Origin: Psammoneis japonica
Taxonomy: Eukaryota
Direction: 5' to 3'
Assembly: GCA_008632985.1 (NCBI GenBank)
Contig: QPGO01000233.1
Coordinates: 1-64,000 of the forward strand
DNA: 64,000 nt
The notes beneath the pieces were generated by a model that had not been told where the DNA came from, made no database searches, and saw only the letters and a program-made list of their open reading frames with translations. Shown here piece after piece: positions 1,257 to 53,142 of this stretch. The translations under genes were made by a program, and so were the position numbers. The first letter of the stretch is position 1; every line of letters starts with the position of its first letter.

Positions 1257-1261
1257 GTCTT

Positions 1262-18914: not shown

Positions 18915-19059
18915 ACGTACTTTCCAAAAATCCGGTTCCGCGCAGAAATTTCACGCACACGTGACAGACGACAATTCGTGTGCCGAATGACAAACAATGT
19001 GACGATGGCTAAGACTGCCATCATGCCGTCAAGAAGGCTCGTCTCCATTAGAGCTTAGA

Positions 19060-25125: not shown

Positions 25126-26883
25126 ATGAGCCCCAAGAAACACAAGAATCGTAGCCGTGGTATGGACAAGCAGGAAGTGCAACCGCCTTCGTCGCTGCAA
25201 CAGAAGCAGCAGCACTCGTTGAACACGGAGGCCATAAGAATAGCCCAAAATGTCAACGCGGCCGTCCTATCCCAAGTCAAAAAAGATTTTCTGCAATACA
25301 ACAAAACGATACAGGAAGAAACGGGTGTGTTTATTGGTTTTAAGCCGGGCCCCGTTGAAATGACGTGGCTTGGTGTAGGGCACTTGTCCTCGCCGGATCA
25401 TAGTGATGTCTCCGCGAGGCTACCTCCGTTTTGCGTTTCGGCCGCTCGTCAGCTCATCAACAATGGGAAGCATTTTCCAGCCCTCCAAAATCTCGAGCGT
25501 CCGGAGAGTTTGCTGAACAAATGTCGTATCGTGGTGGAAAACAGAGCCGATCAGGCCTGGCTGGAAGAAATTTGGCAAGGCCACAGCCTGGTATTTTACG
25601 TTTACGATTCCAGTGTATGTGATGACGGTGCTTGCGTCAAATTGATCGTCACTACAGCTCAAGACGAAAGACTCATAAGCTTCACCGGATATCCACAGGA
25701 ACTGAAGCAACGGGGTCCAGTGGAAATGCCGTCCCCGCGATTGTTACGCATCGTTCCAGATGTCAAGGACAGGATGCTTTTGTGGTCTCGAATTATGCAC
25801 ACCTTTCTTCGCACGCATGCCTACATGCTCCCCTCACACATTCTGGTGGACCTCATGGATATTTACTTGGAGCCTGACTACCCCTTGACATCAAAAAAGT
25901 ACAAGGAGGACTATTTAGATTGGCAGATTCTCCGAACGGATTTGACACTCAACCTGCCGGGGTTGACACGTTGGACCGAGAACGACGACGACGATGATCT
26001 AGCCTATGCGATCAATGGTTGCTTGATGAAGGTTGGATGTGCCTTAGCGGCTTTGAATCGATTCGAACAAGCCGCTCTGCTCTATGCGGATATTGGCGAC
26101 ACCTTTCAAGAATCCGTCAATAGCTACATCCAAGCGGGGCAGTGCTTTTTCAATTTCGGCGACTACGGTGCAGCACTCGACTACACCACCAAGAGCATTG
26201 GTCGACTGGTGAAAGACGATCCAGAGCCAGATCTTAATGATCCAAACCATGAAAATGCTTTGACCATCATTCTGTTGTCCTATCATGCCATTTTTGAGCA
26301 GGCTATATCTCGCCACGGCCGCAACAACCGAATGCTAAAATATGACAAAGACATTGTTGTCGCCTTGGGGTGCCTTGCACTTTTCTCAACCGCACACGGT
26401 AAGTTTCGAGACTTTGCCTTTGAATTTGGCGTCCCCGAGGGTACACGTCTTTCGTCGTTCATGAGGAGCCGAGTCTCTAGTCCCGCCAGAGCCAAGCACG
26501 TCCTTGTCAAGTTGATGCGATCAGGATCCATTGAGGAATACAAGGCAGCCTTTGAGAATGTGTTAGAAAAGCCTTTGCCATTGAGGCCAAAGTTTGACAC
26601 GAATAGCTCGGACGAATATCGGCGGTCCCTTGCGAAGGATGGTCGCAAGTCAGCACACTTCGTCAACAAGCATGGATGCCGTCCCATGTGCTTGGCCTGT
26701 GGGTTGATGAAAGGAAAGCTCCTCGCTTGTCCCTGCAAGAGTGCAATGTACTGTGATGCGTTATGCCAACGATCGCATTGGGCAGTTCACAAGGAGGTCT
26801 GTTCTCATCACCTGTCCAAAAAGGCGACGAAGAGGAAGAACGCCGAACGCAGCGAGGCTGACACTTCAGAATGTCGCAAGTGA
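25126..26883 (+). CDS. MYND zinc-finger protein with TPR-like helices
   Basis: 585-aa ORF with C-terminal CLACG...ACPCKSAMYCDALCQRSHWAVHKEVC and a TPR-like YIQAGQCFFNFGDYGAALDY. Confidence 0.85.
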   Translation: MSPKKHKNRSRGMDKQEVQPPSSLQQKQQHSLNTEAIRIAQNVNAAVLSQVKKDFLQYNKTIQEETGVFIGFKPGPVEMTWLGVGHLSSPDHSDVSARLPPFCVSAARQLINNGKHFPALQNLERPESLLNKCRIVVENRADQAWLEEIWQGHSLVFYVYDSSVCDDGACVKLIVTTAQDERLISFTGYPQELKQRGPVEMPSPRLLRIVPDVKDRMLLWSRIMHTFLRTHAYMLPSHILVDLMDIYLEPDYPLTSKKYKEDYLDWQILRTDLTLNLPGLTRWTENDDDDDLAYAINGCLMKVGCALAALNRFEQAALLYADIGDTFQESVNSYIQAGQCFFNFGDYGAALDYTTKSIGRLVKDDPEPDLNDPNHENALTIILLSYHAIFEQAISRHGRNNRMLKYDKDIVVALGCLALFSTAHGKFRDFAFEFGVPEGTRLSSFMRSRVSSPARAKHVLVKLMRSGSIEEYKAAFENVLEKPLPLRPKFDTNSSDEYRRSLAKDGRKSAHFVNKHGCRPMCLACGLMKGKLLACPCKSAMYCDALCQRSHWAVHKEVCSHHLSKKATKRKNAERSEADTSECRK

Positions 26884-26889
26884 TTGCTT

Positions 26890-29800
26890 GGAAGAAACTG
26901 CTTTCATGTTAGTCCATAAATTAGCACTTCCTGCACGTGCACCAACATGCTTCATTCATTCACTGCAAGAAACATGATGGCTTTCAACAGCACTCCGCAT
27001 GTTGGCAGGCCATTTCGGGGGCCCGATCTCAACTCACGCGACCACAAGTTTTCCATTGCTCTCGACATTGTCTCTTCTCGTTGGAACCCATGACACTCTA
27101 GAGAGAGAGAGACTCTAGAAGTGTCCACTTAGAGAAACTGCACGCGCTTCCACTCTCTAGCCACTGCAGCAGCTTAGAGGCCCTCTCCAGTGAAGAGTGG
27201 AGAGAGAGTCTCTGCCAGGGCCCCAGCGATGAATCCATCATGTGCCGTCCAACCCAATGTGATCTCACAATGAAAGCACCGAGGATCATCTGAAAGCCCA
27301 ATGAAATGGTTCCATGCTTCATTCCGGCCTGTTTAGAGTCATCAGTGTGTCACCTGCCAAGCTCTCTCATTGTTTGCATCAATGCAACCAAGAAGCGGCA
27401 AATGAGAAAAGACATCAAACATGAGAGAAGGGTGCAGGTTTTGAGGATGGGTTTCCTGAGGATGGCAACAAAGACAAAATGGGTGAGGGATGGAAAATGT
27501 TGATGTGCACGGTGGCTTGCCATTTTTGGGCATGCCCAACTCCAACAATGGGAAGCTGGACAGCACCATTGTTGCTGCTGCGTGCAAAGCGACAAGAGAT
27601 TGTTGGCTGGAAAAATCAAGGAATGCCATCAAGAATGCAAACAGATGGAACAATGGTTGGCAATTCTTGGTGATGAAAATGAAGACCTGCTGGCAAAAGA
27701 GATTGAGACATTGCCCCACAAGTTGCAGCAGTTGGGGCCACACAGACAGGTGTGCCAAGCAAAACACCAGCACGGTTTGGCCAAACACTTGTTGAACCAT
27801 GCATTTTTGAAAGAGATTGGCTTCATTTGTCGTGTCAAGTGCAGGGCACAAACGGACACTCAGGTGGTTCATGGCCGAAGATTGTTGTGGATGAGTGCAC
27901 AACTTCAGAACAATGGCAGCTGCGTGAACATCCCATTCTAGACAACAACTCATTTTGTTGGCCCTGCTTGGACACTCACCTCTTCTTGCTTGTCTCACTT
28001 TCTGTGACTCCACCCATGTGTGGGGAGGACAAACCATGTGCTGCTTCTTTCATGTGATGAACATGGTTGCATGGTGTGTCAGCAGGGTGGAATGCAGTGC
28101 TGATTGAGTCAATTGGGGGGTCAGAGGGTGAGATGGTGGGGAGCAACATTGCAAAACATTTGAGGTTCAACCCCAGGAGACATGTGCAGAATTTTTGAAG
28201 AAAAGGAACACACAGAGAGCTGTGTTGAGTCAAGCACAAGTTCGCCCATCATGTCAGCCAACAATTGTCACACCTGTGACTTTAATTGTGAAGCATCCTG
28301 TGCCAAACCTTGTGGCACCACAACAAAATGGACTGTGCTGCAGCCCCCCAAGACCAGAGGCAAACAAAAGTGCACAACAAATTGGGGGGCGACTTGCACT
28401 GGACTTCTTGCCACAGTTGCAGCTCTCTTTGTGTGACTTGCAGGGGCAAGAGACAATGGCAAAACAAACAGCTGCACACATGCCATGTGGATGATGGTGT
28501 GCAGAGAAGCAATGCATCAGTCAGCATCAGCAGGGCTCTCACCACATCTGCAACTGATGAAGGAGATGACATTGCAAGTGAAAGAAAACGACAAAAAAGT
28601 GGCACAACAATGAAGTGAGAGACAGAAACATGATTGTGCTGGAGAGCTGCTGCAAGAAGAAGAGGACTTTGTTTGGGTGGAAAAAATTTCTAAAAAGGCC
28701 ACAAAATGCCATGTCAGCAGAGTGGCAACAGCGGCATTGTCTGAGCTCAATGTGCTGCAAATCAACAGAGAGTGAGCATGATGGGAAATGTCAAAGGACA
28801 AGGTGCACAGGGGAATGGATTGCACAGGAGGAGGGGTTGGCACTGGGGCATGCAAAGTGAACCTGCATTGACAATGCAGCAAGCCAGCATCACTCCCCAA
28901 ACCAAATGTGGCATCACCCACACTGCAGCCAGCACCAACATGTCAGGAAAATGTGAGGCAAGAACCTGCACATGTGGTGGAAACTGTGCAGAGGAGGACA
29001 GACCCACATGGATCAATTGGGCCCAACTCAAATTGCTCCCCCCCCCCACATGCAGTTTGTGCACACCATGTTGCAGTTTGAAAAGAACTCCAGCAGCAAG
29101 GAACAGCGGGCTGAGCGTGCTGTGTTGCCAGCTTGGTCAAACCCGGTTGTTGACCCCAGCAGCTTGATTTGAAAGTCTCGGGCTTGCACAAGCACTGCAC
29201 AGCAGCAACAACCTTGCCAAGAACAAACACCATCAATTTTTCTGAGCACCAAGCATGGCACCAACACCCCAACCCTCCTGGGAGACTGTGATGTGAGCCA
29301 AAAAAGTGCCCTTCTTTTTGCAAGCCAGGGTGACACTGACTCAAATTGTGCTTGTGCCAAGATGCCAACACCAAGCTCATCAGAGCTTGTAAAGACAGCT
29401 CCGGAACAGCTCCTGTGGAGAAACTTGGAGAGCTTTTTTGTTTCCAATGCATTTGGAAGTGTGTGATCCTTTTGCAGTGGAAATGCACTGCTCCATGTGT
29501 TGGCGATGTTGTTTGACGCCACACCTTGGCAGCTGTTTGAAAGCTGCAAGGCAGCAAAGATTTTTTTGCGGTGCAAAAGCCAAACAGTGGACACACCATC
29601 CTCTGCACATCATGTGGCTGCTGCACTGGCAGAGGCCCAGTGTTTTAGCACACCAGCAGATGGCAGGCAAAGCAAGTTGATGGAGAACGAAAAGGTGGTC
29701 AGAGGAATTGAGCTGTCACTTGTCAGTTGCATCAAGCTAAATGACATGTGCATCAGCCATGCGGTGCTTCTGAAATCCTCAGCAGTTCTTTTTCCTGTGA

Positions 29801-29980
29801 CACATCGATGTTTTGACAGGGAACGAAAGGCTGATCAGATGGAGGAATGGAACCGTCACTCGTCAGTTGCATCACTCAAATGACATTTGCATCAGCCATG
29901 CGGTGCTCATGAAATCTTCGGCAGTTCTTTTCCTGTGACACATCGATGTTTTTGGAAACCAAATGTTTTGCTCAAGATGA
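26890..29980. other. TpA/CpG-depleted hypermutated block C
   Basis: Starts immediately after the MYND stop codon. Residual TA is mostly in TAA/TAG/TTA/CTA contexts. No recognisable intact ORF. Confidence 0.85.
29713..29952. repeat. ~100-bp direct repeat with a 140-bp period at the edge of block C
   Basis: GTCAGTTGCATCA...GCATCAGCCATGCGGTGCT...TCCTGTGACACATCGATGTTTT occurs twice. Confidence 0.85.
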
Positions 29981-30072
29981 ATTATAAAAGCAGAATAAAA
30001 TAGTGCTTGAAAGCTAAATTATGTTGGACCTACTGTCTTTATTCTCCTAACTAATGTTTTGTGGCACAAACT

Positions 30073-30738
30073 CTACTCAGCAGGAGCCGCAGCGGAAGCC
30101 GCTGCAGAAGCCGATCCAGAAGCTGCAGCAGCTGATTCTTCAGGAGCCTGTGCCTCCGCATCAGGCAAGAGGGCTCCAGCCTTCTCCATCAACTCCTTAG
30201 CTTCTTCAGGAATCTCGACATCACCTTCGACAATCTCCGCTATCGTTTCCTTTCCGTAGGCAGCCACGTTGGTGTCATGGACCTCCCAAATGACGTTGTT
30301 CTCCAGTTGAACGTTGATCATGGCGCCCTTGGTAAATACGTAGACATAGGAATAGCCCGTGCCCTTGGCGAGCTCGGCTTGCAACTCTCGACCAACCGGG
30401 CCGGCAGCGAATCCCGCCGTTGCGCCGACCTTCAATTTGAAATCGGACTCGTACATGCGCTCCGTCGCCATCTTGCCAAGAACAATCACCATTATTTTCT
30501 TCTGAGCACCAATCGTGGCGCCAACTCCCCAACCCTCCTGGGAGACTGCGATGGGAGCCGAAAAGGTACCGTCCTTTTTGCGAGCCAGCATAACGCCCAA
30601 TCCACCACTGCCAGAGATGCCAAGGCCAAGCTCACCAGAGCTTGCCAAGATGACTCCTGAACAGGTCTTGTAGAGATCCTTGTCGAGCTTTTGTGCGTGT
30701 TCGATGCACTCAGAAGCGGCGGTAATGTACTTCTCCAT
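30073..30738 (-). CDS. SYLF/Ysc84-like domain protein
   Basis: GLGISGSGGLGVMLARK.DGTFSAP, GWGVGATIGAQ, AGFAAGPVGR and YSYVYVFTKG..NVAAYG are typical of the SYLF (Ysc84/SH3YL1) domain. Confidence 0.85.
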   Translation of the reverse strand: MEKYITAASECIEHAQKLDKDLYKTCSGVILASSGELGLGISGSGGLGVMLARKKDGTFSAPIAVSQEGWGVGATIGAQKKIMVIVLGKMATERMYESDFKLKVGATAGFAAGPVGRELQAELAKGTGYSYVYVFTKGAMINVQLENNVIWEVHDTNVAAYGKETIAEIVEGDVEIPEEAKELMEKAGALLPDAEAQAPEESAAAASGSASAAASAAAPAE

Positions 30739-31000
30739 GTTGACGATTGAGCGGTTTTGGCAGCAGGCAAAAGATTTTTTTGCGTGAGAGTTGGAAGCTA
30801 AGAAGAGATACTGTACTGTAGAGATGAATGATGAAGTACCGTTGGCAAAAAAAATGACAACAACAAGAAAGATCGCAAGAAAAGACCGTTATTTACTATT
30901 ACTATCATACACGTTGTAAGATATGTATTTCGATTTAAATCGCGCGAACGTTAAACTTTTCAAATTGCCCTTTGGATCTAATTTATCGATACTATACTTA

Positions 31001-34000
31001 ATCGGAGTGCTCATTTCATTCGTGAAAACTGACATCCCATGACAAGGTGATTTCAAATTTCATCCTCATTCTCGTTCGAAATCTTGAAGGGTGCATCAGC
31101 GCAGCAACCAGCAATGCGAGGACACAAAAAATTGCAACCTCGCTCTGCATGTTCACAAAAAATCTGTGTCACAATGGCAGAAAGAAAGCACGCATCTTGG
31201 GCAAAGGGAGCTGCCATGCTTCTCAGCAGCTCAAGGTGGGGTGTGTGCTGCACCACAAAACTCTGGTGCCAGAGAGGGGGAAGAACAACACAGATTTTGT
31301 GTGGCTCTGCTGGGTTTTCTTTTGTTGAGTGCAGGTTCACCCACCGCAAGTTCTTGGAATTTGACAAACCTGCATTTTTTGCAAGAAACGGGGCTTTGGC
31401 CAACCAGCCGCACTTGCGCACAAAAGACATCTTTCGCCAGTGCTCCTCCAAAAGCTCATGCACCCCCCTGGCATGTTTTCTGCAAGCTGGTTCTCTGCAT
31501 GCTTTTGGGGCAAGATGCATGGGCAGCCACCCCACACTCTCACAATTTGTGTTTGACTGTGGTGTCAGGCACTTTGTGGCTCCCTTGCTGATGCACTTTT
31601 GTGCACAAAGTTCTTGTGCAAGCACATGGTCATCATGTGGGACAAAACTCAGTGCAGCCCCATTTTTGTCCCCCTGGGGTGCACCTCAGACACCCACCAC
31701 TTGAATTGTCCCATGTGTCCCATGACACATTTGCCTCAGAATTCTGTCCCAAGCAACAACCAGCATGACAGCAGGGTTGCCACACAGCCCTTCCCCAACC
31801 TCAGCGTTGTTCTGCCATTGTGGCACCTCCGGCTGGGGTCCCAGCCATGAGTGCCATGCACACAATGAGCTCGTTGTGTCAAATGGTTGGGACGCCATTG
31901 CTGACCAGCAACTCATGCAAGACAAAGCTGTGGCAGAAACCTGGAAACAGAAGTGGTGCCCGCACATTGACGAGCAACTGGGAAAGCACACAACATGCAA
32001 CCCTGGATGCTCCATTTCAGCCCTGGACTCTGTTGCAGACCTTTGCTGCCAAAACACAGATGGCAGCTGGAATGATTTGATGTGATGTGGTGTGCCAGGC
32101 TTTCTTGCAGTTTCCCATGAATTTCAAAGGAAGGGCACCTGCAATGTCCTGCACTTTGTTCCACAACTCACAATGCAAGGAAATGGTGTCCTCCCCAGGG
32201 TGTGTTGCCTGGCACTGCACTCTGATTGTCATTGCATCTTTTCATTGTTCTCACTTTTGTTTTGCTTGCACCCTGCCATGCAGTCTTCTTTCACTCCAAC
32301 CATCCAAAAGATCTCAAGCATTTGAGAGTCAAAAAGCAGCTGCACCTGTCAACTCAGCTTGTGTGTTGTCCAACATCTGCACATTTGTGAGGAGCAGCTT
32401 GCTCTCTCCAAAGATGTTTTGCAGCCCAGAACAGCACAGGTTGGCAGATCCAATGCATGCAGGAGGACCCCCCCAACAAGTTGCCGTTGCCAGCAGTGTT
32501 CCCTGACTCTTCTCCCTTTCCAAATCCTGGCGACATTTTTCAGAAAAATTGTTCCCACCTTTCTGTGTTTGAGAAGACACCTGGGTTTGGCTCGCACTCT
32601 GGGAATCCATGAGCATGTCTGAATTTCACCTTGTTGATGAGCCATCACCTCAAGAGGTGGTGGCTGGTGACACAACCAAGCTCATCGATCATGGAGCGGC
32701 TCCTGCCAAAGACCCTGTCAAATTGGTTGCCCATGACTGTGTGACAACCCACCCACCAACTGCAGCCTGTGAACATTGTGCGACAAGTTGTGTGACAAGA
32801 AGTTCTCTTTTGTTGTTCAGAGCTCCCATTCCTCATGCAAGAAGCAACACTTTTCTTGATGGTGAGTCAGTGTGTCAGCCATGGTTTTTCACACAGCCCT
32901 CCAACATGGGAGGCCCAATGTGAAGAGAGGGGTGGAGTCAGAAGTGTGAGGTGCAATGTGCTTTCAAACAGCAGTTGGTTGTTGTGCTCAGAATTTGCTT
33001 TGGGCAAGATCAGCTCTGCTGCAGAGGAGAAGACTGCAGCATGTTGGCATTGAAAATTTGCCACACCAGGGCCTGGTGCGCCCTGCAGCAACATCCACTC
33101 AAGGTCATGCAGTTCACAAAATTTGTCCCCCTCATCCAAAATGGTGATCCACAAGGTTGGATTTAAGGCAATTTTTGAGATCACTTCACACAATCTGCAA
33201 ATGCATTTTGCACTTGCTGGCTGCACATGTTCTTGAAGCTTCCTTTTGTTTGTTTCTCAGGCAGGGTCTGTTGCATCTGTGAGCAGCTCCATCCACTCCA
33301 CATGTGGGTGGGCTGTTTTCACCTGGTCCTTTTGTGCTGTGGCATCTTTCTTGATGACTGTGTCTGGGCTCTGTGTGTGTGCAATCTTAGCTTCACACCC
33401 TTGTGTGGTGTTGGTGGGTCCTGCTGCAACAACTCAAAGTCTGGCCTTCCCATCTTGTCTTTGGCTTTGGTGTCCCATCATGGCCCCTCCTCCTTTGGAT
33501 GAGCTGGGCTGTTCCAAAATGCAAAAACACCTTCATTTTTGTCAACAACACATCAACAAGGGGTCAAACACCAGATTTCCATCCACTGTGCAGGCCTTTG
33601 CATGTTGTTCTGCCATGATCAGGGATGACTCAAGAAGCAAGCTCAATGGAACCTTTGACAGACACCTTGGTTGTGCTGACAATGTGTGATGCACTTGAGC
33701 AATGCTTTTGGTGCAGATGCTTTGTTGCCACTGGAGGAAGCTCAAGTCCTGCCATTTTGGAGAACCACTCCTGCAATGCATGCACCCAAGTCTCAGCCAT
33801 CTCTGTGACATGATTGATGCAAGAATGTTCACATTGCAGCTGGTGCATGGGTGTGAGGAAAGCAACTTGGAACTTGGTTCCACTGCCTTTCTTGTTCCTT
33901 TTTTGGGTTGTCATTCTTCATCATCAAAGACAAAGCAAAAGCTGACCTGGTGGGCTATTTCAGCAAGCAGCAGCAGTTTTCCTTGCATCAGTTGTCATTT

Positions 34001-37000
34001 TTTGTGGTCTGCAGGGTAGAAGAGGTTCTTGCTTTGGGCTTGTGAGCATGGGTCCTTCGTAAAGCACTTGTCATTGCTCTCAATTTGTTGGCTCTGTGTT
34101 GTCCTTCCAGAGAACCACCATGCCAGGAAATGAGTTGGGGAAAGTGCTTTGTGCACTCTGTCTTTTGCAGATCCCATCTTTTGCCACAAGCCTTGCACTT
34201 GTCTGTCTTTGGCTTTGTCCAAATTTGAGGATGAGCATTCCCAGAATGCCATCAACCATGATGCCAATGGACATGCCTTTGCTTTGCAAAGGCCCCTTTC
34301 TGTTGGTTGTTTGCACTCCAGAAGCCACCCAGTCACTTTGTCCATTCACAGAAGCACAACAACATTTCCAACAGTTGTGCCCACAATTTGTCAAGAACTG
34401 CAAGATTGTCATCATCATTGTCATGCTCAATCCATGTGAGTTGCTGGATGGCAGGATTCCTCTTTCAAGTCATTGGCAGCAATGCACAATTTTCTTTGCT
34501 GTTTCTCTCTCCAAGATGTCCACAATTTGCCTTTGCCAACTCCCATCTGCAGCAGCACACCAGTGTAAAACAAGACACCCCAGCATGCTCAATCACTTCC
34601 ATTCAGCTTAGAAAATGGTCATGCCGGTCATGAAGTTTGCACAAGGGTGGCTCAACAACAACTTGTTTGTCTGTGCCTTGGGGTGTCAATTGCAAGCCAA
34701 AGCAAGCAATCCAGCAGGTCAGCCCTCCCACTTTGAACAAGTGATTTGCACAAAACCTTGACAATCTCCTCAGCCACTCTTGGTTGAAGGCATTCATGAG
34801 ATTTGTTGGTGTCTCATGCTGCACATTCTCTCAACTGGGTCAGCACTCTGCATCTCAAAAGAAGCCCTCCCCACACAGGATGGATGGACATCAGTGAAAG
34901 ATTTTTTTTCTTGTTCTGTTGGTGCAGATGTTTTGTCAGTCAACCCCACAGTGGCTGACACAAATGACTGGCTGGCTCCAAGGTTTCCCAAGTTAATCAG
35001 CTGCACTTGTGGCACGGGTCATGAGTTTGGCTTTGTTGCTGGGGCAGTTGCACACCCAATGAAGCCAACTTGCTCAGTTTTGCATCCACACACTTTGCAT
35101 CACTGCAACAATGCATCCAAGCCAAGCCTGTTCCAGCAGCACAAAAGAATGAGAGCAAATGCCATGTTTCATGGGCCTTGATCCCACAAACCACACTGAC
35201 CAACATTGTTGCACCCAGCTGAACTTGTTTTGGAGGCTTCTGCACATTGTTTGCAGCTGTTTTTGTGGAACTCCTGCTGCACACTGCACACATGTCAAAG
35301 CCTGCCTTCACCCTGGCACTCACAAGTTGCGCCATTTCTGAAGATGAAAGGCAAACAGAGGTGGCAATGTGCCTCTGGAAGGTTCCTGGCTGTGCTTGTG
35401 CTGAACAAGACAAAGTGCCAGTTGCTGACTCACAGGCAAGTCTCACATTCATTCTGTGCCCCCCACATTTTGTTAACATGGAACACTGTCTCAACAACAA
35501 AGTCATCATTGGAGCTCAAGAATGGAGCACACTCTGAGCATCCTGGAAGACAAAACTGTCTTGCAGCTCCACCACCCATTGCCAGTCTTGCTTTCTTGTT
35601 GGCAGAAACTGGAGGGGTTGTTGCAGGCAACACTGGGGGCGGGGATGTCAACTTGTGATTTGTCAAGAGCCACTGGAGCTGTGGTGCAGGAGCACCCCAA
35701 ATAGCCACACAGCAGTGGATTGCAAATCCAGCGTTGTTCCACCACTCACCAGCTCCTGACCCAGCACATGATCAGTGGCTGGCAAGGGAGGAGGCAAACA
35801 TCTCCTGAAGTTGCTTTGCAAATGCACTGCAGTCACCAGAGAAACTAGAAAAATGAGTGGCTTGTTAAAAGCATCACAAGCCCAATTGGCAACATCTTGG
35901 AAATGATGTTTGGGCACCTGCATTCTGTCAAACAGTCATTGTGGCTTGAAAAGATGCTTCTCTTCCTCTGAGTGCAAAGTCATGGTCAATGTGCCAATGC
36001 AAAAAATGATCACACTGTGTGCTCCATTTGAGGTGGAGCTTGTTTCTTCTGCATTGCTGGGGCAGAGCAAAGCAACATCATGCAGCACTTTAGCCAGAAT
36101 GCAGAGGTGGCAACCATGCCGCTTTCTTTGCACCTTCTTTTTCTTCTTCTTTTTCTTTGCATGTCTTCTTGGGAAGAAACTCAGAGAATTTCTGTTGCCC
36201 CATCAAAGTTCTTTTCTCTGTTGTTGTTGCCATCTCTCTGCTTGACCCTGAAGATGTGCCAGTGAGGCAACTCCGCTGTTTGCATTTGCAGGGTGCTCCA
36301 TTGCTGTGTTTGTCTGAATGCCTTGGTGGACTTGACCTTGATGTTTGGTCAAGGTGGCAAGCCATGTGCCATCATCTTGGCTGGTGGCTTGACAGCCTGC
36401 ACTTTCCAATGGCAAAACAGTGGAGGAGCTGTGATGCCTGCACTTTCCCAATCATCATGCTGGTGAAAGGAATGTGAGTGGCTTGTCTGGGCTTCTTGAA
36501 ATTCATTGATGAAAAAAAAATCAGTGCTTCCCACACATGGAGGACCAACATGTCTTGTTTCTTTGCTGGAAAACCCCTCGGCAGATTTTGACAGCAGCAG
36601 CCAACATGTTGGCAGGCAACTTCAAGAGCCCAGTCTCACCCCACACATCTGGAAGCTCTCTGCTGCTCTGGACACATGCTGTCTCTTGTTCTTGCCTTGC
36701 TGTTGATCTTGCGGCTTGGACAAACATCCAATTGAGCAGAGCTCCACCTCAGCTGCTTTGTGGCTTTTTTGCTGCTTTTGATGGAAAATTGGCTGCACCA
36801 ATTTGTCTGTTCCTTCAAAAGAGAGGAGACCCTGGAAGTGCCAACTCTGACAAGAGGAAGAGCCTCTTTGCTCAGCATTTTTTGCTCACTTTGCTTGGTC
36901 TTTATTTGAGCCACTCCCGTGACCACTGCTGTTTCAGAAAAAGTGTGCACAGGAGATGTGGGCCTTTGCTCCACTCTCAAAAAGGACCTCCTTTGCATGC

Positions 37001-38910
37001 AATGCTTTTGGGGCTTTACCCTCATTTGTTGTGCCAACATGATCAGCAAACAAGATTGTTTTTAATGAACAATCTCTTGGCTGCTGGTGTGAAATCTACT
37101 TTCAATTCACAGCAGCCAAAAATCAAACTGTTGCAAACCCAGTGATTCCCACCCAAATTTCATCAGTGCATCATCCATGCAACAATGCCCCCCACTCATG
37201 GGAGGAGGCAGGAAACATCACAGGAAATCAAATCAACCCCCCCCCCCCCTCACATTTTGATGCAAAGAGCAGTTCACACAACAAATGAGCCCAGTGCAGT
37301 GGATGGTTGCACAAGTCAGGCATGTCTGTTGTTTCGCTGCATTGTTGTTCCTTTTCTGTTTGAGATTTGCTCTGTGTCATCTGGAAAGATTTGGAAAGAT
37401 TGTGGGTGTGGATGGCACCATTTGTGTTTTCAAAGGGGTGCTGTTGCCAATCAAACACCCTGCCAGTCTTGCATGTGTTGTGCCTCTGTGCTGGCTGACA
37501 CTGTGCTTCTCTGTTGCCAACCACAACTGCCCCACAGCTCTTCAGCATCTCTTGACATTCCTCATCTTAAGATGGGAGACTGCAAAAGCTCAGCTTGTGG
37601 ATTGACTTGGCAATGAAGCCAAGCACCTTGTTCACACTGAGGGAACTGTGTCAGAGTTTGTGACTGACAGAATGCACTCCAAAAATTGTCCACTGCTGTG
37701 AAAGCATCTCTTCAAGCACAAGTGTTGCATGGAAGAAAAGGCAACTTACAAGCACACCTGCCAAAGGTTTGAAAAAGGGCACCAACAAAGAAGGGAAGAT
37801 GATGCTTTTGCCAAGGGTGTTGACAGTGACAAAAGAATGGTCAAAAGTGCCAGCGGGGGTGCTGCTCCAGGCTGCTGCTGACAAGGATTTTTGTTGTCAA
37901 GTCAAGAACAAGATGTGGGTTGAGTTGGGGCCTCATGCAAGTCAAGGAACAAAAGGCTGTGATGTTCGTCAAGTTTCAGCCTGCTGGTGCCAAAGATGCA
38001 GCCCTGGAGGGTGCTTGCAAAGGCTCTGGCTGACAAGCTGACAGACAAGGCCATGGATCAAGTGTTTGATGACACTGGCAACAAAGCAAAGGCAGGGCAG
38101 GCTCTGATTCTCAGCCAAAACTGCCTGAGACAAAGACACAAAGAAGGGAGAGCAGCACCCCACTGTGTTGACATCCTCCAAACCAAAAAGACAGAGAGAG
38201 AAGTGTCTGCAGCATCGCTGCACTTGTGATTTGTAAACTCAGCCTGCTCACAAGCTGTGAGTGCTTGCGCGTTGATGGCACCATGCACACTTCTTGTGCA
38301 AGGCTCAACTGTGCAAATGCACACTTTTGGCCAACCCTCTCAGGGCTCAGCTGTGTTGCTGCTGTCACACATGGACAACGCCCCTTGTTTTCTGGCTCAT
38401 CACAAGCATCAGAATGACGAAAATCTCCCTGCACTGAGTGTGGCACTGCTGCTGCATCTGCTCAACATGTCTTGCAGCACCAAAGCAGAAACTGCACCAC
38501 CTCTCTGTTTTTTTTGTGGTTGCAATTGTGAGTTGTGTCCGGGATGTCGAAGAATGTTGAGCTTGCCTTGCACAAAAGAACAAGAGTGCAATTGTCTCAA
38601 ATCAGTCCAGTGGGGACCACTCTCTGGCTGCTCTGCCGGAGCCGCTGCCAGCTGCCAGCTAGAGAGAGAGAGCACCGGTGGAATGGAGAGGTTTTCAGTC
38701 GGATCGCTCTCGCTCACAGTTAAAGCATCGATCATGCTGACCTGCATTTCATTCATTCATCATCGTCGTCGGTCCTTCCCGTGCCGCCGTGTGCCGGCCA
38801 GGCGCGACGAAGTAAACAGGCGATGCGACGACGCGAAACAAACGCACCTTATTGCGCCGCACACATTGACACAAAGACGACGGCGGCAATGCTCAACGCC
38901 GCTGCTGTGC
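31001..38910. other. TpA/CpG-depleted hypermutated block D
   Basis: By manual reading there is no TpA between 31001 and 33163 and only a few dozen elsewhere. TG/CA-rich throughout. Confidence 0.9.
33900..37150 (-). mobile_element. Possible degenerate non-LTR retrotransposon ORF2 relic
   Basis: Scattered minus-strand peptides (TSRSSPPRH, SNGAHSVII, GYLG, LTKCGGHR) occur in the order expected for a diatom LINE RT region. The resemblance is weak. Confidence 0.25.
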
Positions 38911-39042
38911 TACTTCACACAACCTCTATTGTCTATTGTAGCTACAGAACTTTGTACGCATAGCAGGCATCAGTGGAGTGATAGAACCGCTGTTGTTGTA
39001 GACAAAAACTCGTCGGAGTTCTTTTGAAGTGAATAAATCATC

Positions 39043-40980
39043 ATGTCGCAAAACACCGATGATCTTTTCGCCAGGTACGTCAGATTATACCTCCGTTTTT
39101 CTCAGCAGGATCTGGAACTTCCGACTGGCTCTCCTTTAGTGCATTAAAATATGTGACGACTCTAACGTATCCGTCCGTTCCGTATTTTTCAGCTTGGGCG
39201 GTTCGGTCATGAAGGACTTGTGGGATGACCTGCAAGTGGGCGAAGACGATCTGAAGACCGATCGATGGTCGTTGGAGCAGCTAGAGCGAGAGCTTGCTCA
39301 CTTGGAAGAACCGCCGCCACCGCCACCTCCTGGTCTATCGGCTGCGTCTTTGGTTGTCTCCCATGCTCAAGAAAAACAACATCAGCGTCCGGAAACTACT
39401 ATACCGACGACTACGACATCCGCCGCGGATGCCTGGAGTGAATCGCTTCAGAAATTTACAGCACTCTCTCTAGAAAAGGACTTCTTAGCAGCTGATTCGG
39501 CGCGAAAGCAGCAGACGGCACCGCCACCGGGTCTCGAAATTTAAAACTATTCGAGGATGCTACTGATTATGATGTTTCTGAGAAAGTGGAATTGGGTACT
39601 CCTCCTCCGGGAATGGGTGCTCCGCCTGGACTAGCGGCGGTAGCTCGATCTCAAGTATCAAAACAGCAGCAAGCCGCGAAGACTCCACCCATACCTGCGC
39701 CTGTAGAGCAGAAGCCGATGCCGATGCCCTTTCCCCCGCAACAGCCATCTACTCCGCAACAACAACCTCCGATGCAGCCTCCTCAGCAACAACAGCCTCC
39801 GCCGCCGCAGCCACAACAACAGCCAACTGCAGTTCTGAGACGGCCTCAACCGCCTCAGATGCAGCAACCCGTGGTTATTCAGCAGCCTCCACCGATGCAA
39901 CAGCAGCCTCCACTTACTGTGCAGCAACCTTCTGCGGGTGGAATGGCGTGGCGATCGCCTCCTCCGAAGCAAATGCAGGCACCGCCTACTCCAGCTCGTG
40001 TGTACTGCCAGCCTCATCCATCGGCGCCGCCCATTCCAGCTACCTTGCTAGAATCGTCCTACATGAAGGCTCGCGATATTTCTTATGTCTTGCATAGCAT
40101 GTTGAAGCCCGTCTTGCTCATGCCAGCGTCATCGAATTATCATTTGGAACTGCTTTCGCGACACTACATGCAGCAACAAAATGTCAAGGAGCCCGGGGCA
40201 CCGATCAAGGGACTCAGGAGTGATACCGCCGTATCGCTCAAAAGTAAAGAATGGATGGAGAAACATTCGACATTGGGCCACTTGTCCAAGGCGGACGTGA
40301 CGAGGCCACGGGCTCTGATTGCGACAACGACATTGTCCAAGGAACAGCTAGAGCAACAAGACGATGGTACCAGGAAGCAACGTGCCTCATTATGGAAGTC
40401 TCGTCTATACATTGATCAAGCCTATCAAGCTTACAATAATCTTGTTCGCGTATGGAAGGCTTCTGCCGCGGGCAAGGTGCCACCCCAAGAGATTCAACAG
40501 CATCTGTTGCGATTGTACAAGTTTCTGGGCATTTCTATTGCTACGACTGAAGGCGGTGCCACAGCTGTCGACCCAGCGGTATTGGGAATCATTTTGAAGT
40601 TATCAAAAGGCAAAGTGTTGGTGGCTCGCATTGTAGAGCAAGCGCTCCTGCCACCCCACGTCGTACAAGCATTGATGCCTGCAGTTTTTGAAATTCTCCT
40701 GCCTTCGGCTACAAACAAAGACGATCCCTCTCCCGAGAATCGCTTGTTTGGAGCCTGCGCTCGTGTCTTGACGACACTTCCCTCCTTGACAAAAGACAAT
40801 GTGGCTTTGTGTTTGCAGGAATTCTTGAATCATTCCGAGCACGCCTTGGATACTACCTTTCGTATGGAGTGCATCCATGCGTTGCTGCAGCGGGGTGGTT
40901 CAATGGCAGCGGCTGATCCGGCCTTTGCTTCGCAGACGTGGACTGCCATGGAGGAGCAATTTCTTAAAATGCTATCGTAG
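39043..40980 (+). CDS. PAT1: PAT1-like mRNA decapping activator
   Basis: Exon 39043-39074, intron 39075-39192, then a Pro/Gln-rich region, YMKARDISYVL, LGHLSKADVTRPRALI and LSKGKVLVAR. One 1-nt frameshift at about 39538 (A run). Confidence 0.72.
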
Positions 40981-42056
40981 GCGTCTAGGGCTGTGCCTGA
41001 GGAGGTTGTGGGGAAAGACTTTGTGTACTAGATCTGATTATTACTAGCACGATCCTCTTGTTCACTAGCACCATCCATCCCATAGTCTAGCTTCGTCTTT
41101 CTGGACACTGTCTTCCAATTTCATTACAAAGGAAAAGACTGGCGCTGCTGACAAAATAAAGACAGCGGAACTGTGAAGCCCCCTCATCATCTTCCCGGGA
41201 TGTCGTGGGTAGAGTTCAGTTGTTTTTGTTTGTAGCATTGCAAACACAAAATGTCAATTTGTTTGTGGGGTTTGGCTTCTTGGGCGTAAGTTCGGCCGCA
41301 GTCATGCTGTGGTCAACAGTAGACAGAATGTATTCAAAGAGAGCCTGGTTCGATGGCTGGCGCATGAGACCAATGCCCACAAGAATAAACAGCAATTCTT
41401 TACATTTCGTCATCCTCTTCTTAACCCACGACACTATATGGAAGAGGCAATGCAATTCAATCACGTCTGTTTTTCAATACCGACAACGTCAACCTCTTTT
41501 TTCTTCGCCTTCAATGAAACAATCTCGCGTAATATGGCTCTTGCGACACGACTGAAGTCACCCTACCTACTATGGTATGGTACCTACGGTAATCGATCGT
41601 TGATGACGTCATCGCACGACTCAAGGTGCGGTGAGAAAAGAGTGCATCCAGCATGTAACGCGTAACGCAAATAAGTTTCAGAATAGGAGTTCTTCGCGAT
41701 GGACTCTCAGTTCGACAACATAAGCTCAAGGATATACATGTCAGGGTAGTGATAGGTGCTACCACTCCATTGTGTCAGCGTACCTTTTAGGGTACATGTT
41801 TTTACCAGCAGCAGAAGAAAAGCGAGGAGTACAGGAGCCCGGCGACCGATGGACGCCCAACGGACACTAACGTGCGTTAGATGCGTTACGTACCGTACAA
41901 TAGAGGGCCCCTATCATACAGCATGTCTGTGCGCTCAAAATATGATGTGTTTTTTGTGTTGCGTTTTACCGTAGAGACAAACTTGCACCGGTAACGTATT
42001 GTAGAGGAGTGACACCAGACGTCAAATTCAGGGCCCTACCGAGTGTGTTGTTCACA

Positions 42057-43795
42057 ATGGCACAACAACAACAGCTCAAAAGCCAAAGCACTAATAAAAT
42101 GGATATGGCTGCACCTTGTCGAAGGGTACTTTTACTTGCCGCCATGGTTATCCAGAGCTCAAGCACAGTACTTATCGGTCGATATACGCGATCCAGCTCT
42201 CCACAAGAAGAGTTGTATGAGATTAGCATTTGATTCTTTTGTGTGAAGTTGCAAAGGTGATTGTGAATGGAGTGCTCGAAGTGGTGACATCCGGAGGACG
42301 CTTCTTTGAGAGATTGAAGAAAGGCACATGGCAACAACCCATGGATACCATGAAGCTTTCGATCCCAGCGCTTTTTTACTTTATCCAGAATTCTCTTTTT
42401 TACGTTGCCGTCGGAAATTTGAGTGCTCCGGTATTTCAAGTTACATACCAGAGCAAACTCGTTGCTACGGCTGTTGTGAGTGTTGTCATGTTACAACGAA
42501 GATACACGGTTCGACAGTGGGCGTGTCTTGTTGCATTATCTCTGGGAGTGGCAATTGTTGTTTTGGGTGAAGCGAGAGAAGGCAGTGACTACAAACGTGA
42601 ATTAAATCAGAATCTGTTTTCGGGGCTCGGCGCTGTCTCGGTTTCGTGCCTGTGTAGTGCCTATGCTGGGGTGTACTTTGAAAAGATTGTTAAGCACAAC
42701 AATGGGGTACCGGTGTCATTGTTTATGCGTAACATGCAGCTTGCGTTCTTTTCCGTACTCTTTGCTTCGCTACAACAAATATTCAATGTCAAAACTACGG
42801 AGAAACCCTTCTTGCATGGCTTTTCGACAATGGCGTGGGTGTTGGTCCTTCTGCAGGCGGTCGGCGGTTTGCTTGTGTCTGCCGTGGTCAAATATGCTGA
42901 CAATATCATCAAGGGACTCGCGACGGGTGTGTCGGTTTTGCTTGCAACGCTCCTGAGCAGTCTTATCTTCGGCACACCATTGACTGGTCATTTTGCTCTT
43001 GGAGCCTTGCTCGTTCTCAACAGTATCTATTTCTTCTGCAACCCGTGCCCGAACATGAAACGCATCCAAGGTATTTGTATGATCTATTTCTTTATTTTTG
43101 CTGTGAAACAGCAGCTGAAGACCTTGCAAGATGCCCTTGCATACTCGCCTTTAATGTCTACGGCTCAAACGTCCTGCGCCGTCATTTATAGCTCTGGAAC
43201 ATTGTTAAAATACAAAGATGGCCCGCTCATTGACACGTTTGATGAGGTGATTCGAATCAACATGGCAGACACGATTGGCTTTGAAGACTACGTCGGCAGC
43301 AAGACGACGATCCGAGTGTGTCATTTGGGCCATAGATTTAGTCCAGCCGCATGGTTTGCCAATCGAAACGAATCCAATGTCAAGGGTCTCACTTTGAATT
43401 TGACCTTTGAACAAAACAAAGGGAAACACCGAGAATGGGAACGTTTAAAGCAGAGTACAGTTTCGGATTGGACCATGGCTCCGAGATTGCTTGAAGACGA
43501 CTGTAATCGTCTTGTCGGGTACGATAGCCCAATGCGTTGCAGCTCTGGCCTCATTATTGTACTCTGGGCTGTTGAGAACTGTGATAGTGTTACGGTGTTT
43601 GGGGCAGTGACGGATCGTTGTTATCCATATCATTATTATGATGCAATCGCACCCAACTGCTCAAGACCACTGCAATTTAAGAAAAAATTCCATGACTTTG
43701 ATCGAGAACACGCCGTTCTTGAGCAGTTGCATTGGAATGGCAATGTGACGATTAACAGGCTGACAGTGGCTGGCAAGAATGCTGCTCCCTTGTAG
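42057..43795 (+). CDS. SLC35A-like nucleotide-sugar transporter fused to a GT29 sialyltransferase-like domain
   Basis: Transporter motifs LCEVAK, IPALFYFIQN, FQVTYQSKL, AGVYFEK and VVKYADNIIKG. A short TM segment follows, then sialylmotifs L (CAVIYSSG..IDTFDEVIRIN..GFEDYVGSKTT), S (SSGLIIV..CDSVTVFG), III (HYYD) and VS (HDFDRE). 1-nt frameshift at about 42227. Confidence 0.88.
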
Positions 43796-44039
43796 GAGGA
43801 AGTGGCCTCTTTGCGTCCGTCCCGCAGCTCTCCAATTGCCGCAGTACAAAATTTTTATTAAGTGAAGCCTAATCTGAGATGTTTGCTGCCGCATGAAGTC
43901 TTTCCATTTCTCTACGTAGTCTCGAGTAAAATGAAACTGAATGACTGAAATATAGTGTGTGTAAATGGAATTATGGTGCTTCAAGGAGCTCTTTGATCAA
44001 AGCCAAGAATCTGTTGTCAACGGAGGGAGCTGGAGTAGC

Positions 44040-46600
44040 GACAGGACGCAGGATGTTGAGAAGATGATGTTTGATGATGCAGCTCAGATGTCCAGATGGG
44101 CCATTCTCAAAGGAAGTCTAAGATTTTGTGGCTCAGTCTTCTGAACAATGTTGTCAGTCTCACTGGCCTGTGAAAACTTGCATCAAGCCATGGGCTCACA
44201 ATGTTGGGTGAATGCTCTGATCACAGCATCCTTTTCCACATGGCCATTGTTGCCAGCATGAGTGCTGGCACAGACCCTCTTCCTCCTGCCTTGCTTGTTG
44301 ATGTGGCAAAGAAGAAGCACCACAACATGTTGCAGAGGGGCACATTGTCAGCCATGACTGAGACCATCACAATGACCTGTCAAGACTCCCCGTGCAGTTT
44401 TGTGGATGTGATCACTCCTTTGGATGTCAAAAAAAGCTCTGAATCACATGGTGGGCCAGCAATGCTGCTCCTGCTGGCCCTGTGCCCTTTGACAAAGCTC
44501 ACATCAATTTTTGAGCACCTTGTTGCATTTCTGTTGAGAACACCAAGTCACCCAACACCCAGCCCTAACAACTCTTGTGCAACACTGTGTCTGCCATTGC
44601 ACCGGCAGAGGAGAACAATGTCAAGATGGTTTTGCAACTTTGAGAGCCCATTTTTGTGAAACCTCTTGCAGAGGTCATTGGCAAGAATTTGTGGGAAACA
44701 CAACTGAGCAGCCAGATTGAGGCTGCATCATGGGCTTTTGGAAATCACAACCCTCACCAACTTGTGGATGCCAGGTGGGAGAACATGCAACCAGGGCATC
44801 AGCAAGTCTTGACCAGCATCACAGGGGCACACTGCACGTGCCTGTTTCAAGAAGGAATGTGCAGGACAATGCAAATCACATGGGCCATCATTGTGGTTTG
44901 AGTCTCTGGAGAACACAGCACACAGCACAGGGGTGCTTGGAACCACAGAATGAGCCTGCACTTGGAGAGTGCTGAGAACAATTAGATTTGCTGCAGAGTG
45001 TGCTGCACACCAGGCAGCTCTGACCATTTGATTGGAAGAAAAGAGAATGGTGCCAACAAAGCTGGTTGGTGATCACAAAGATGAGCAACATGGAGGGCTT
45101 TGGAATGTCAATTCTCTTGTGCAGGAGGTGCATGAATGCCTTGGGAGCACATGGCTCAAGGAATCATTTGCAGATCCAAAAGCAAGGGAGTTTGTTGCAA
45201 AGAGGAGGGATGCTGCTTGTGCTGTCAATGTGGACAGTCGCAAACATTGACACTGGCCTGGCAAATTGTTTGGGTCACATGATGCAATTTCTGTCATGGC
45301 ACTCAGCACTCAAAGGACTGTTTGACACTGTGGTCAAATAACCACATGCATCTCTCCCTGTTGACCAGCCCTGCCCTGCTTTGCACCACAACATGTGATC
45401 TGCCACAATGGCCAACACATCACAGAGGAAGCAAACAGCTAAGATGAGCATGTTTTTTCTTGCTGTGGACAGAAGGCATCAAGACATGCCATGTGCCAGC
45501 CTGAGAAATCTGGGTTGAAAATTTAAAGTGAGTCTCATTTTGGCTGTGCTTCCCTGAAAAGGATGTTGGGGCAATCCTCACAGAAAGCCACAAAGCAAAA
45601 TCTCTGGAGCAAGCTTTGAGGCTGTGGTCAATCACAGCGGAGCTGAGCCACACACTGGGCCAGATTGCTGTCAATCTGGATGACTCCAATGCCCAAATGA
45701 AGCAGCACAAAGGCACTTGAAAGCAGGGCATGTTCAGCAAATCATGCTCTCTCAAAGAAGCAAGAGCACAAAAAGATGCGCACCTCTTTCCTCATTTGTT
45801 CGTGTCATGCCCAGAAGCTTTGGCTGCTCGTCGCCATTTCTCAAAACAAAAGCTGGGGCCAGCAGCAGCCAAGCATGTAGCACAATGTGTCCTGCACTGC
45901 CAGAGACAATGATGTTGGTGATCCAAAGACAAGGAAACTGCTGCAGCAGAGGAGAAAAGCTCTCTCATTTTCTTTTGCACCCAAGACACTCTGCCAGACA
46001 GCATGGCTGCACTGCATTTTTGTCTTGAGCCATTGTTGTTGTGGCCATTGCCAGCCTCCTCTTGAATTTTCATGCAAGAGCTTTCATCCTTTGACTCACA
46101 AAAGCAAAGGAGGTCTCCACCAGATCTGTTTTGTTGCCCTGCCACTCAAGCTGAGACGACAAAAACACACTCGTCTCGCTTGCTGTTTTTTCATGGGCCA
46201 ACGCGCAGATTGGAGTTTGGCTTCTTTTTTCTGTGCTGTTTGGTGTTGGAAGTGCAAAAGGCAACAATGTGGCTGGAGCAGGCCAGGGCTTTGTCAACTG
46301 CAGGGCTCTTGTGGCGCTGCACAAACTGGCACATGGCCGAGAGACAGAAGACATGAGAAGCATGTGCAAGAAAAGACCCAAGCTCCAAAAGGACCCCCCC
46401 CAGTGGATTTGGGAGCGGCCACTCACGCTCAAAACAGCTTAGAAAGTGACTGCAATCTACTGCAGATGCGATTTCAATGTTCTAATTTCAACTCTGAAAC
46501 TCAGCTCCATGGTGCTGCACATTTTTTATTGACTGCCGAGAAACGTGAAGTGTCAAATGACGCAGTGCAGCAGCAATGTCCACCCTAAGAAATGAGTTTT
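44040..46600. other. TpA/CpG-depleted hypermutated block E
   Basis: Same dinucleotide signature, flanked by normal-composition genes. Confidence 0.85.
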
Positions 46601-51957: not shown

Positions 51958-52778
51958 CCCAAGTCGTCTTTCCCCCCAACTAGAGGAAAGTAGGCGTTGG
52001 CGATTATGTTTTCAAGCCGTCCGCCACTGCACTAGAAGTCATAACTATGTCACAATGTACCGGTCCCGCTCTAGCTAGAGAAAGGAGACAGAGTCAAAGT
52101 ATTGTTGTTTTGCACTGGCTACGATGTAGAATAAGAAAAAAAAATAGACCTAAAGGTTTTATCAAATGACAGTGATGCAGCTTCGCTTACAGTAGTTGTT
52201 TCATTCAAGATTTTAGCTTACAGTGTTTTTGCAGCATGTACAACAAGCAATGAGGACTGAGATGAGGCGAGCGTTCCATGAAGTTAGACGGGACTCATTC
52301 AGTCGCGTGTGCGCATCATCACACTGAACGAACATACGGTACTTGTACACACAACACACCTACCGGTACCTACTAAGGTTACCTACTTCTACCATGACAG
52401 AATTGGAGCGGCTGATTAGATAGACTATTGCCGAACCTTTCAACAATACCAACACTATCTACTCTAGTCTTTACCATCATATAGAAACAACTCATGTTGC
52501 GTTTTTTGAAGGTAAGCGGCCAATTGTAAGATGAAAAAAGGATTTTGTATTGACACCACGATTCTGCTGTGATTTATTTGTATTGCTCCTTTATGTCACT
52601 ATCTCACTCCTTTTATTTGATACTTTCGTTTCAAATACAAACAGACAGAGTGTTTAGACCATAGCAACAGTTTGAACAGGCAACAACGGCTGATAGTTTC
52701 GCATCGGCATTAACACCTTTTCGTTTCAATACATTGTTTTCTTCCTTGTTTCGGAACGTGGCTGTGGCGTGTCCTACG

Positions 52779-53069: not shown

Positions 53070-53142
53070 TAGTAAATTTACTCCCAAACACTTATTCATC
53101 TCTCTTGAGATATATCTACCGATCATATTGTCCTGACCAGAC

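Follow-up and report, generated by a model that had tools for sequence, protein, structure and literature searches.

Five blocks of the window are almost free of TpA

The window analysed here is a stretch of 64,000 nucleotides from the pennate diatom Psammoneis japonica (GenBank assembly GCA_008632985.1, contig QPGO01000233.1, positions 1 to 64,000 of the forward strand, to which all coordinates refer), and contains five blocks, together about 20 kb of the 64 kb, that are almost devoid of the dinucleotide TpA (TA). A preliminary description of this DNA had listed five such blocks between flanks of normal composition, and had flagged the fourth. Segmentation of the whole window with a two-state hidden Markov model (HMM), run on the pyrimidine-purine (YpR) sites, returned the same five and no further blocks: 780-6070 (block 1), 19113-21255 (block 2, patchy and in three HMM pieces), 27188-29978 (block 3), 31023-38634 (block 4, the flagged one) and 44049-46410 (block 5). 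Two of the limits given earlier needed correction, in that positions 1-775 are normal and block 1 starts at about 780, not at 1, and the end assigned to block 4, 38910, takes in a transition zone. In block 3, TA depletion is visible from 26922.

Pooled counts were made over the five blocks as first delimited (21289 nt, the first trimmed to 776-6230), with the other 42711 nt as flanks. The blocks hold 73 TA, an observed/expected ratio (o/e) of 0.05 against 0.61 in the flanks, and 337 CG (o/e 0.27 against 1.02), together with 2342 TG (o/e 1.76) and 2331 CA (o/e 1.75), for which the flanks give 1.17 and 1.13; the CpG depletion and TG/CA excess described earlier are therefore real features of the blocks. 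Per kilobase, TA falls from 41.1 in the flanks to 3.4 in the blocks and CG from 58.4 to 15.8, while TG and CA together rise from 143.2 to 219.5. The total of YpR sites is nearly equal (238.8 per kb in the blocks, 242.7 in the flanks), so the losses of TA and CG are balanced by the gains of TG and CA. GC content is likewise unchanged (0.487 in the blocks, 0.48 in the flanks) because A>G and C>T cancel. AA/TT shows no depletion, with an o/e of 1.25 in the blocks and 1.14 in the flanks.

The individual blocks, delimited by HMM and sliding windows, differ mainly in how much CG they retain. Block 1 has 10 TA and 105 CG beside 596 TG and 530 CA; block 3 has 7 TA, 34 CG, 315 TG and 330 CA; block 4, taken from 31000 to 38634, has 20 TA, 45 CG, 880 TG and 857 CA; and block 5 has 7 TA, 16 CG, 265 TG and 275 CA. 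Block 2 is the least decayed, with a TA o/e of 0.09-0.13 and a CG o/e of 0.49-0.68. By the HMM counts, survival of TA is 0.05-0.15 and near its floor in every block, whereas survival of CG ranges from 0.10 in block 4 to 0.56 in block 2. The claim that some 2.1 kb from 31001 lack TA was borne out: no TA occurs from 31000 to 33163, and the longest TA-free run (30999-33164) measures 2165 nt, for which the chance is about e^-91 if TA occurs, as in the flanks, at 0.041 per position. At 31000 the loss of TA is abrupt, to within a few bases, while that of CG sets in more gradually; the segment 31001-32000 has no TA, yet 19 CG.

The assembled bases were checked against de Bruijn contigs of a public run (X1), which may be the assembly's own sample. 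In this run, 91% of the sampled words of 29500-39400 are present, and its contigs cover 26000-45999 in full, bridging blocks and genes. They differ from the window by 13 letters in 3681 nt of block 3, and by 22 letters in a 10110-nt contig that takes in the greater part of block 4 and the genes after it. The X1 contigs rule out a consensus artefact, as had been asked of read support, and would not be independent biology if X1 is the assembly's sample. Within the blocks, at least 3 of 35 TA sites and at least 10 of 95 CG sites differ between the window and X1, as against at least 17 differences of other kinds over 12354 nt. At 38034-38035 the window has CA and the X1 contig TG, two adjacent differences that fit one ancestral TA or CG resolved in two ways, in haplotypes or strains. 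These differences hint that the TpA process in the blocks is ongoing or recent, and of a raised rate they give only a hint.

A dead gene copy and a transposase relic polarise the changes

Block 3 contains a partial duplicate of a neighbouring host gene, which lends itself to polarisation. The parent gene (30073-30888, minus strand) is intact, encodes a Ysc84/Las17-binding domain (Pfam PF04366, E 8.5e-22) and has normal TA and CG; its segment 30366-30795 matches a pseudogene at 29104-29584 (minus strand), found with blastn and a transition-tolerant alignment. The two are 77.8% identical by blastn and 88.6% identical when reduced to purines and pyrimidines (RY space), where their local score of 137 compares with a maximum of 37 in 200 shuffles. 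With the intact gene as proxy for the ancestor, none of the seven parental TAs is kept in the pseudogene: three became TG, three CA and one AA. Only 4 of the 26 parental CGs remain, 14 having become TG or CA, and parental TG and CA are mostly retained (21 of 30 in each case). The parent itself, 1.2 kb from its mutated copy, is untouched.

Block 2 carries the relic of a PIF/Harbinger-like transposase of the DDE_Tnp_4 family (19090-20407, minus strand), recognised by profile and tblastn searches and broken by two frameshifts. Its 406-aa open reading frame (ORF) is the sole block ORF that exceeds all 200 dinucleotide shuffles (maximum 338), and an exhaustive profile-free search returned 662 homologues, 49 of them at E<=1e-30. 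Pfam gave no direct match to the ORFs of block 2 in the window, and the link to DDE_Tnp_4 runs through the relatives: in 7 of 12 that were scanned, this domain (PF13359) lies just after or overlaps the matched part, and two have a Ulp1 protease. A profile built from 36 relatives matches in three frames, at 19463-20251 (E 2.5e-85), 19194-19478 (E 1.4e-28) and 19093-19254 (E 1.9e-07). Relatives are ~1500 aa long, and of this length the relic covers just the C-terminal ~440 residues, tblastn giving the same extent as the profile.

The fate of tyrosine, whose codons contain TA, is telling. At the ten positions where the family consensus has Tyr, the relic reads CAT three times, TGC or TGT four times, TTT twice and TAT once. 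Seven of the ten are thus now TGY or CAY, with Tyr replaced by Cys four times and by His three times in one transposase relic, while other residues are kept (Trp at 11 of 11 positions, Phe at 12 of 13).

As a family control we used 45 metagenomic loci that encode relatives of the transposase, taken from one metagenome scan, some of which may be sources of the profile. In 44 of the 45, TA o/e is 0.46-0.86; at least half of the consensus positions still have Tyr in 43 of the 44 other loci, and Cys plus His number 0-2 in all 44. With relatives of ordinary TA and Tyr content, the transposase family is not natively TA-free, and the copy in the window is an outlier. A second outlier is the metagenome contig L037, where a Harbinger-like relic (250-4750, ~4.5 kb) has a TA o/e of 0.03-0.31, a CG o/e of 0.14-0.33 and TG/CA up to 2.1, and has lost the consensus Tyr at 10 of 10 positions. 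Tyr makes up less than 1% of 6 among the 150 homologous proteins listed, one of which has no Tyr in 556 aa. The contig L037, environmental and unrelated, thus carries the same footprint, which therefore exists elsewhere in nature.

The preliminary description had proposed that TA was converted to TG and CA, and had named natively TA-free elements as the case to be checked. Three polarised comparisons (the pseudogene, the Tyr codons and the family control) and the YpR mass balance agree on that direction, and in blocks 2 and 3 the excess of TA>TG/CA is seen directly. Both strands were struck, as had also been proposed: TG and CA are nearly equal across the blocks, the pseudogene has three changes of each kind, and in the relic Cys and His both replace Tyr.

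Flanking bases decide which TAs survive

The surviving TAs are far from a random sample. Among the 73 in the blocks as first delimited, 44 are YTAR and 2 are RTAY, compared with 282 and 537 of 1758 in the flanks, and the bias noted earlier, with YTAR kept and TAY and RTA almost gone, holds up to counting. When survival is expressed as the number observed over that expected from flank density, it falls from 0.244 for YTAR (33 observed, 135.1 expected) through 0.050 for sites with one half-site, either a purine 5' or a pyrimidine 3' of TA (22 observed, 435.8 expected), to 0.008 for RTAY (2 observed, 247.6 expected). A model of two independent half-sites predicts 0.010 for RTAY. The contig L037 shows the same gradient, with 0.89 for YTAR, 0.20 for one half-site and 0.027 for RTAY.

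A bulk accounting of 4-mers, in which CG loss was split evenly, puts the share of TA>TG at -0.16 for RTAR, 1.17 for YTAY and 0.52 for RTAY. These shares imply TAY>TGY and RTA>RCA, that is, that the A before a pyrimidine is hit, on either strand. The flank gradient itself is plain in the counts, and this assignment to TAY is a best estimate only.

The retrotransposon, the duplicate and the genes between the blocks

An intact Ty3/gypsy long terminal repeat (LTR) retrotransposon at 52778-57678 (plus strand) is not hypermutated and serves as an internal control. Its 1409-aa ORF has reverse transcriptase, RNase H and integrase domains, its LTRs of 292 nt are 99% identical with three differing positions, and it has a TA o/e of 0.64-0.84 and an unusually high CpG o/e of 1.4-1.5. 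A self-comparison in RY space found no relation between the blocks and this element. Two of the three LTR differences are TA against CA and TA against TG, with CA and TG in the 5' LTR and TA in the 3' LTR; they could be first strikes of the TpA process or ordinary C>T changes, two copies being unable to polarise them.

A 672-nt duplicate, 97% identical and located at 10852 and 16235, has also retained its TAs (25 and 22). The duplicate, the LTR pair and the Ysc84 parent are all spared. Repetition alone therefore does not trigger the process, and the targeting of repeats, in the sense of fungal repeat-induced point mutation (RIP), that had been put forward for this DNA does not hold.

The duplicate is shared by two neighbouring genes, or gene copies, for a deaminase of the LmjF36.5940-like, CDD/CDA-type family. 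The first (15954-18950, minus strand; ORF 16423-17730, PF14421, E 2.6e-38) adjoins block 2 with its 5' end, and the second (10581-12637, minus strand) looks partial. Named relatives of the deaminase ORF come from diatoms and other ochrophytes. In the part of Iyer et al. (2011) that treats it, the family is listed among uncharacterised deaminases; it occurs in kinetoplastids, stramenopiles and chlorophytes and may act on nucleic acids. It is by vicinity alone that these genes are tied to the hypermutation.

Elsewhere in the window, the ORF of a GH3 glycosidase (22122-24257) is 64% identical to its relative in Seminavis robusta, 57% to that in Nitzschia inconspicua and 47% to that in Bigelowiella natans; its best named relatives are thus diatoms, in keeping with the diatom host. 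At 42227-43795 (plus strand), one ORF encodes both a nucleotide-sugar transporter domain (PF04142, E 1.2e-74) and a GT29 sialyltransferase domain (PF00777, E 2.4e-28). In a second public run, X2, recorded as 'DNA?', position 39071 is joined to 39190, skipping a 118-nt GT..AG interval (39072-39189) that looks like an intron of a gene at about 38873-41053, which suggests that X2 is derived from RNA. Its reads cover parts of genes and none of the block bins, and we take this neither for nor against silencing of the blocks.

Remaining content of the blocks

A transposon origin is seen for block 2 alone and a host-gene duplicate in block 3, and Pfam and homologue searches gave no recognisable origin for blocks 1, 4 and 5. 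In every block but block 2, the longest ORF stays within what dinucleotide shuffles give by chance; in block 4 its length was reached in 91 of 200. When block 4 was read through stops in six frames, no Pfam family matched at E<=0.1 and no coding remnant was detectable. Among the 186 stop-to-stop block ORFs of at least 70 aa, the 150 longest (each of at least 80 aa) gave no transposon or viral domain in Pfam, only noise below threshold. Block 1 has tandem repeats at 862-1255 and 3276-3442 (Tandem Repeats Finder), and its stretch from ~2400 to ~4200 shows a 3-base periodicity in RY space, with power up to 9.4 (random ~1) and phase shifts, which suggests a decayed coding sequence. The ORF at 3704-4423, in the same block, has no homologue at E<=0.001.

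A pair of dispersed repeats links 36518-36690 in block 4 (plus strand) to 26918-27082 at the edge of block 3 (RY-space BLAST, score 78 against a shuffle maximum of 36). The copy in block 4 is the more mutated: relative to the other, 8 of 8 CG and 1 of 1 TA are changed, and there are seven swaps between TG and CA. That dispersed repeats are present in the blocks is seen also from 11 of 20 X1 contigs, which match in part only. A low-complexity tract at 36129-36165, considered as a poly(A) tail, was rejected as such and is a CT-rich run. Chance ORFs of 150-240 aa abound on either strand in the blocks, with shuffle means of 169-229 aa. TAA and TAG are gone and only TGA stops remain, so long ORFs arise by chance and gene callers over-predict in the blocks.

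Discussion

We know of no eukaryotic example, earlier than a preprint of 2026, of regional A:T to G:C mutation at a single dinucleotide. Full-text literature searches found no report of TpA loss in diatoms, and the statement in the preliminary description that the phenomenon had not been described stands for diatoms and falls for eukaryotes overall. In that preprint (Mettrop et al., bioRxiv 10.64898/2026.01.13.699255), whose accessible text is the basis for what follows, TpA>TpG/CpA hypermutation of integrated viral DNA is reported in the chlorarachniophyte Bigelowiella natans. Of the 302 single-nucleotide mutations seen in its mutation-accumulation lines, 231 lay within two regions of integrated viral DNA and were, essentially without exception, A>G/T>C at TpA, at a rate of ~6x10^-7 per site per generation. 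Genome-wide, 124 clusters are TpA-poor and rich in CpA and TpG, with DDE endonuclease and reverse-transcriptase domains enriched in TpA-poor coding sequences. The authors propose a DNA adenine deaminase resembling ADAT2, and their Discussion notes that adenosine deaminases typically prefer a 5' U or T.

The diatom blocks share with these clusters the TpA target and the TG and CA products, the action on both strands, and the restriction to discrete regions in a genome that is otherwise normal; in both there are long-term TpA-poor, CpA+TpG-rich clusters and DDE-transposase domains, and some insertions are struck while others are spared. They differ in the host, there a rhizarian and here a stramenopile, and in degree, as the region of nucleocytoplasmic large DNA virus origin in B. 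natans has a TA o/e of 0.45 while the diatom blocks are near saturation. The targets were giant viruses and virophages there; here they comprise the relic of a DNA transposon and a duplicated host gene, and the mutation rate was measured live there, whereas we see a footprint only. The accessible text on B. natans makes no mention of diatoms or of CpG, whose loss is strong here, and its main text gives no flank effect like that of RTAY >> YTAR. The diatom footprint is thus a member of the kind first reported in a rhizarian alga, and what is new here is its saturation, its coupling to CpG loss and the flank rule.

Other known systems match less of the pattern. RIP mutates C to T mainly at CpA, creates TpA, lowers GC and needs duplicated sequence. 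Like it, the process seen here is regional, hypermutates by transitions at specific dinucleotides and ruins DNA that was inserted or duplicated, but TpA is destroyed with GC unchanged, the 97% duplicate and the LTR pair are untouched, and only one member of the gene/pseudogene pair is struck. Decay by deamination of 5-methylcytosine (5mC), a process of vertebrates, plants and diatom transposons, explains the half of the signal that turns CpG into TpG/CpA; it cannot remove TpA, the loss of which is here more complete than that of CG. The earlier proposal of a second process beside CpG decay, acting in the same blocks, therefore stands. Diatom transposons are CpG-methylated (PMC9998398), and in the accessible text of that paper, on diatom DNA methyltransferases, RIP is mentioned only in the discussion of DNMT4. 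Deaminase defences (APOBEC on retroviral cDNA, ADAR on dsRNA, and enzymes of the ADAT2/TadA type that can work on DNA) have in common with the diatom footprint context-specific, editing-type transitions directed against foreign nucleic acid. APOBEC makes C>T changes, and the substrate of ADAR, an enzyme of metazoans only, is RNA. What is seen in the blocks is at the level of DNA and symmetric, and none of these enzymes has been tied to the footprint.

We propose that the five blocks are decayed non-coding DNA between the genes of a pennate diatom, on which two context-specific transition processes have acted in place and on both DNA strands. One would turn TpA into TpG/CpA (A>G on either strand) very efficiently, with a preference for TAY over TAR, through which RTAY sites would be erased first and YTAR sites last; it would be of the same kind as the regional hypermutation in the B. 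natans mutation-accumulation lines. The other would be ordinary 5mC decay of CpG to TpG/CpA, and slower. We consider this account as a whole probable. With greater confidence still, we read the pattern as the footprint of a mutational process TpA>TpG/CpA and not as native composition. The enzymatic step would most economically be the work of an adenine deaminase on marked DNA; deamination of adenine to inosine in the DNA of marked regions is an attractive possibility that we advance with reserve. Candidates for it would be deaminases, either one that resembles ADAT2/TadA or another, for example the products of the LmjF36.5940-like genes adjoining block 2. The process may have a role in genome defence, and the marked regions are probably methylated and silenced. 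More tentative again is the idea that a DNA adenine-editing defence with TAY preference is common to diatoms and chlorarachniophytes, and may be old and widespread among stramenopiles, alveolates and rhizarians (SAR); under such a shared defence it is conceivable, with a like degree of caution, that diatom TpA is erased faster than CpG, on the same marked regions as CpG methylation.

Several observations weigh against this account. The enzyme step is a matter of inference, with a candidate enzyme only, and foreign DNA is evident in one block only, four of the five having no origin that we could recognise from sequence. Polarised events stand at three for and four against the TAY rule (none of three in the pseudogene; three for and one against among the Tyr codons), and the 4-mer accounting assumes that the blocks originally had a flank-like 4-mer composition; for L037 it failed to balance and carries no information. 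The difference counts between the window and X1 are lower bounds, with 11 further differences lying outside those tallied, and X1 is possibly the assembly's own sample. The text on B. natans that is accessible has no CpG component, so the two systems may differ. Finally, mutation before or during insertion would also account for a TA border as sharp as that at 31000.

That last point leads to a different history, in which viral or transposon DNA, or a replication intermediate, was edited before or during integration in an APOBEC-like manner and inserted TA-poor. The border, sharp to a few bases, and the untouched flanking promoters speak for it, but the duplicate of the adjacent host gene in block 3 is mutated likewise, allelic TA/TG and TA/CA differences occur within the blocks, and the B. 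natans mutations, as the preprint text describes them, arose in DNA already integrated; we regard such a history as improbable. Somewhat less so, though still unlikely in our view, is that TpA is lost as a side effect when 5mC damage is dealt with, through an error-prone patch of the Pol-eta type or through T->C correction by a T:G glycosylase or endonuclease. T->C correction of T:G at replication errors has been proposed for very-short-patch (VSP) repair and the loss of CTAG in Escherichia coli. The losses of TA and CG do share the same five blocks and no others, both yield TG/CA and both are strand-symmetric. Against this, AA/TT is not depleted in the blocks though Pol eta also targets AA, and TA is near its floor everywhere while CG survival varies between blocks and 19 CG outlast every TA in the first kilobase of block 4; the route of WA->WG synthesis by Pol eta offered in the preliminary description is accordingly disfavoured. 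Furthermore, in the text of the preprint at hand, the main B. natans region has 210 A>G/T>C changes among 211 mutations, and C>T does not go along with them.

The remaining explanations carry little weight. Elements that were TA-free and CG-poor from the start, or from which selection removed TA, are very improbable: four blocks have no identifiable ancestor from which an original composition could be read, but the polarised changes in the pseudogene and the transposase largely refute this idea for blocks 2 and 3, TA content is ordinary and Tyr codons are kept in 44 of 45 family relatives, and the lack of an ORF above chance in four of the five blocks leaves nothing for selection to act on. 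We give as little credence to RNA editing of element transcripts (ADAR/ADAT-like, UA>UI) that were then reverse-transcribed and reinserted. RNA adenosine deaminases typically favour a 5' U/T, as the preprint Discussion states, but one edited strand would give TG only, where here TG equals CA and Tyr gave way to both Cys and His. Moreover, of the targets that could be identified one is a DNA transposon and the other a genomic duplicate, the sole retroelement in the window being unaffected. Least credible of all is an artefact of assembly or base calling in modified DNA. The assembly platform is not established, but the X1 contigs reproduce the blocks and join them to genes, the affected sequences have the indels and frameshifts of old pseudogenes, and the unrelated metagenome contig L037 has the same pattern.

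A drive from A:T to G:C at one dinucleotide runs in the opposite direction to both the usual GC>AT bias and fungal RIP. The saturated footprint in a diatom suggests that such a process is not confined to one alga, and links it to regions in which methyl-CpG decay is at work too; the RTAY >> YTAR rule is one that any candidate enzyme has to reproduce. For genome annotation, TA-free, TG/CA-rich blocks offer a simple signal of old mobile or foreign DNA beyond the reach of homology searches, together with a warning that such blocks yield long spurious ORFs. The question has moved into a group with genetic tools: diatoms are transformable and, if the proposed process is true, the enzyme would be findable by knock-out.

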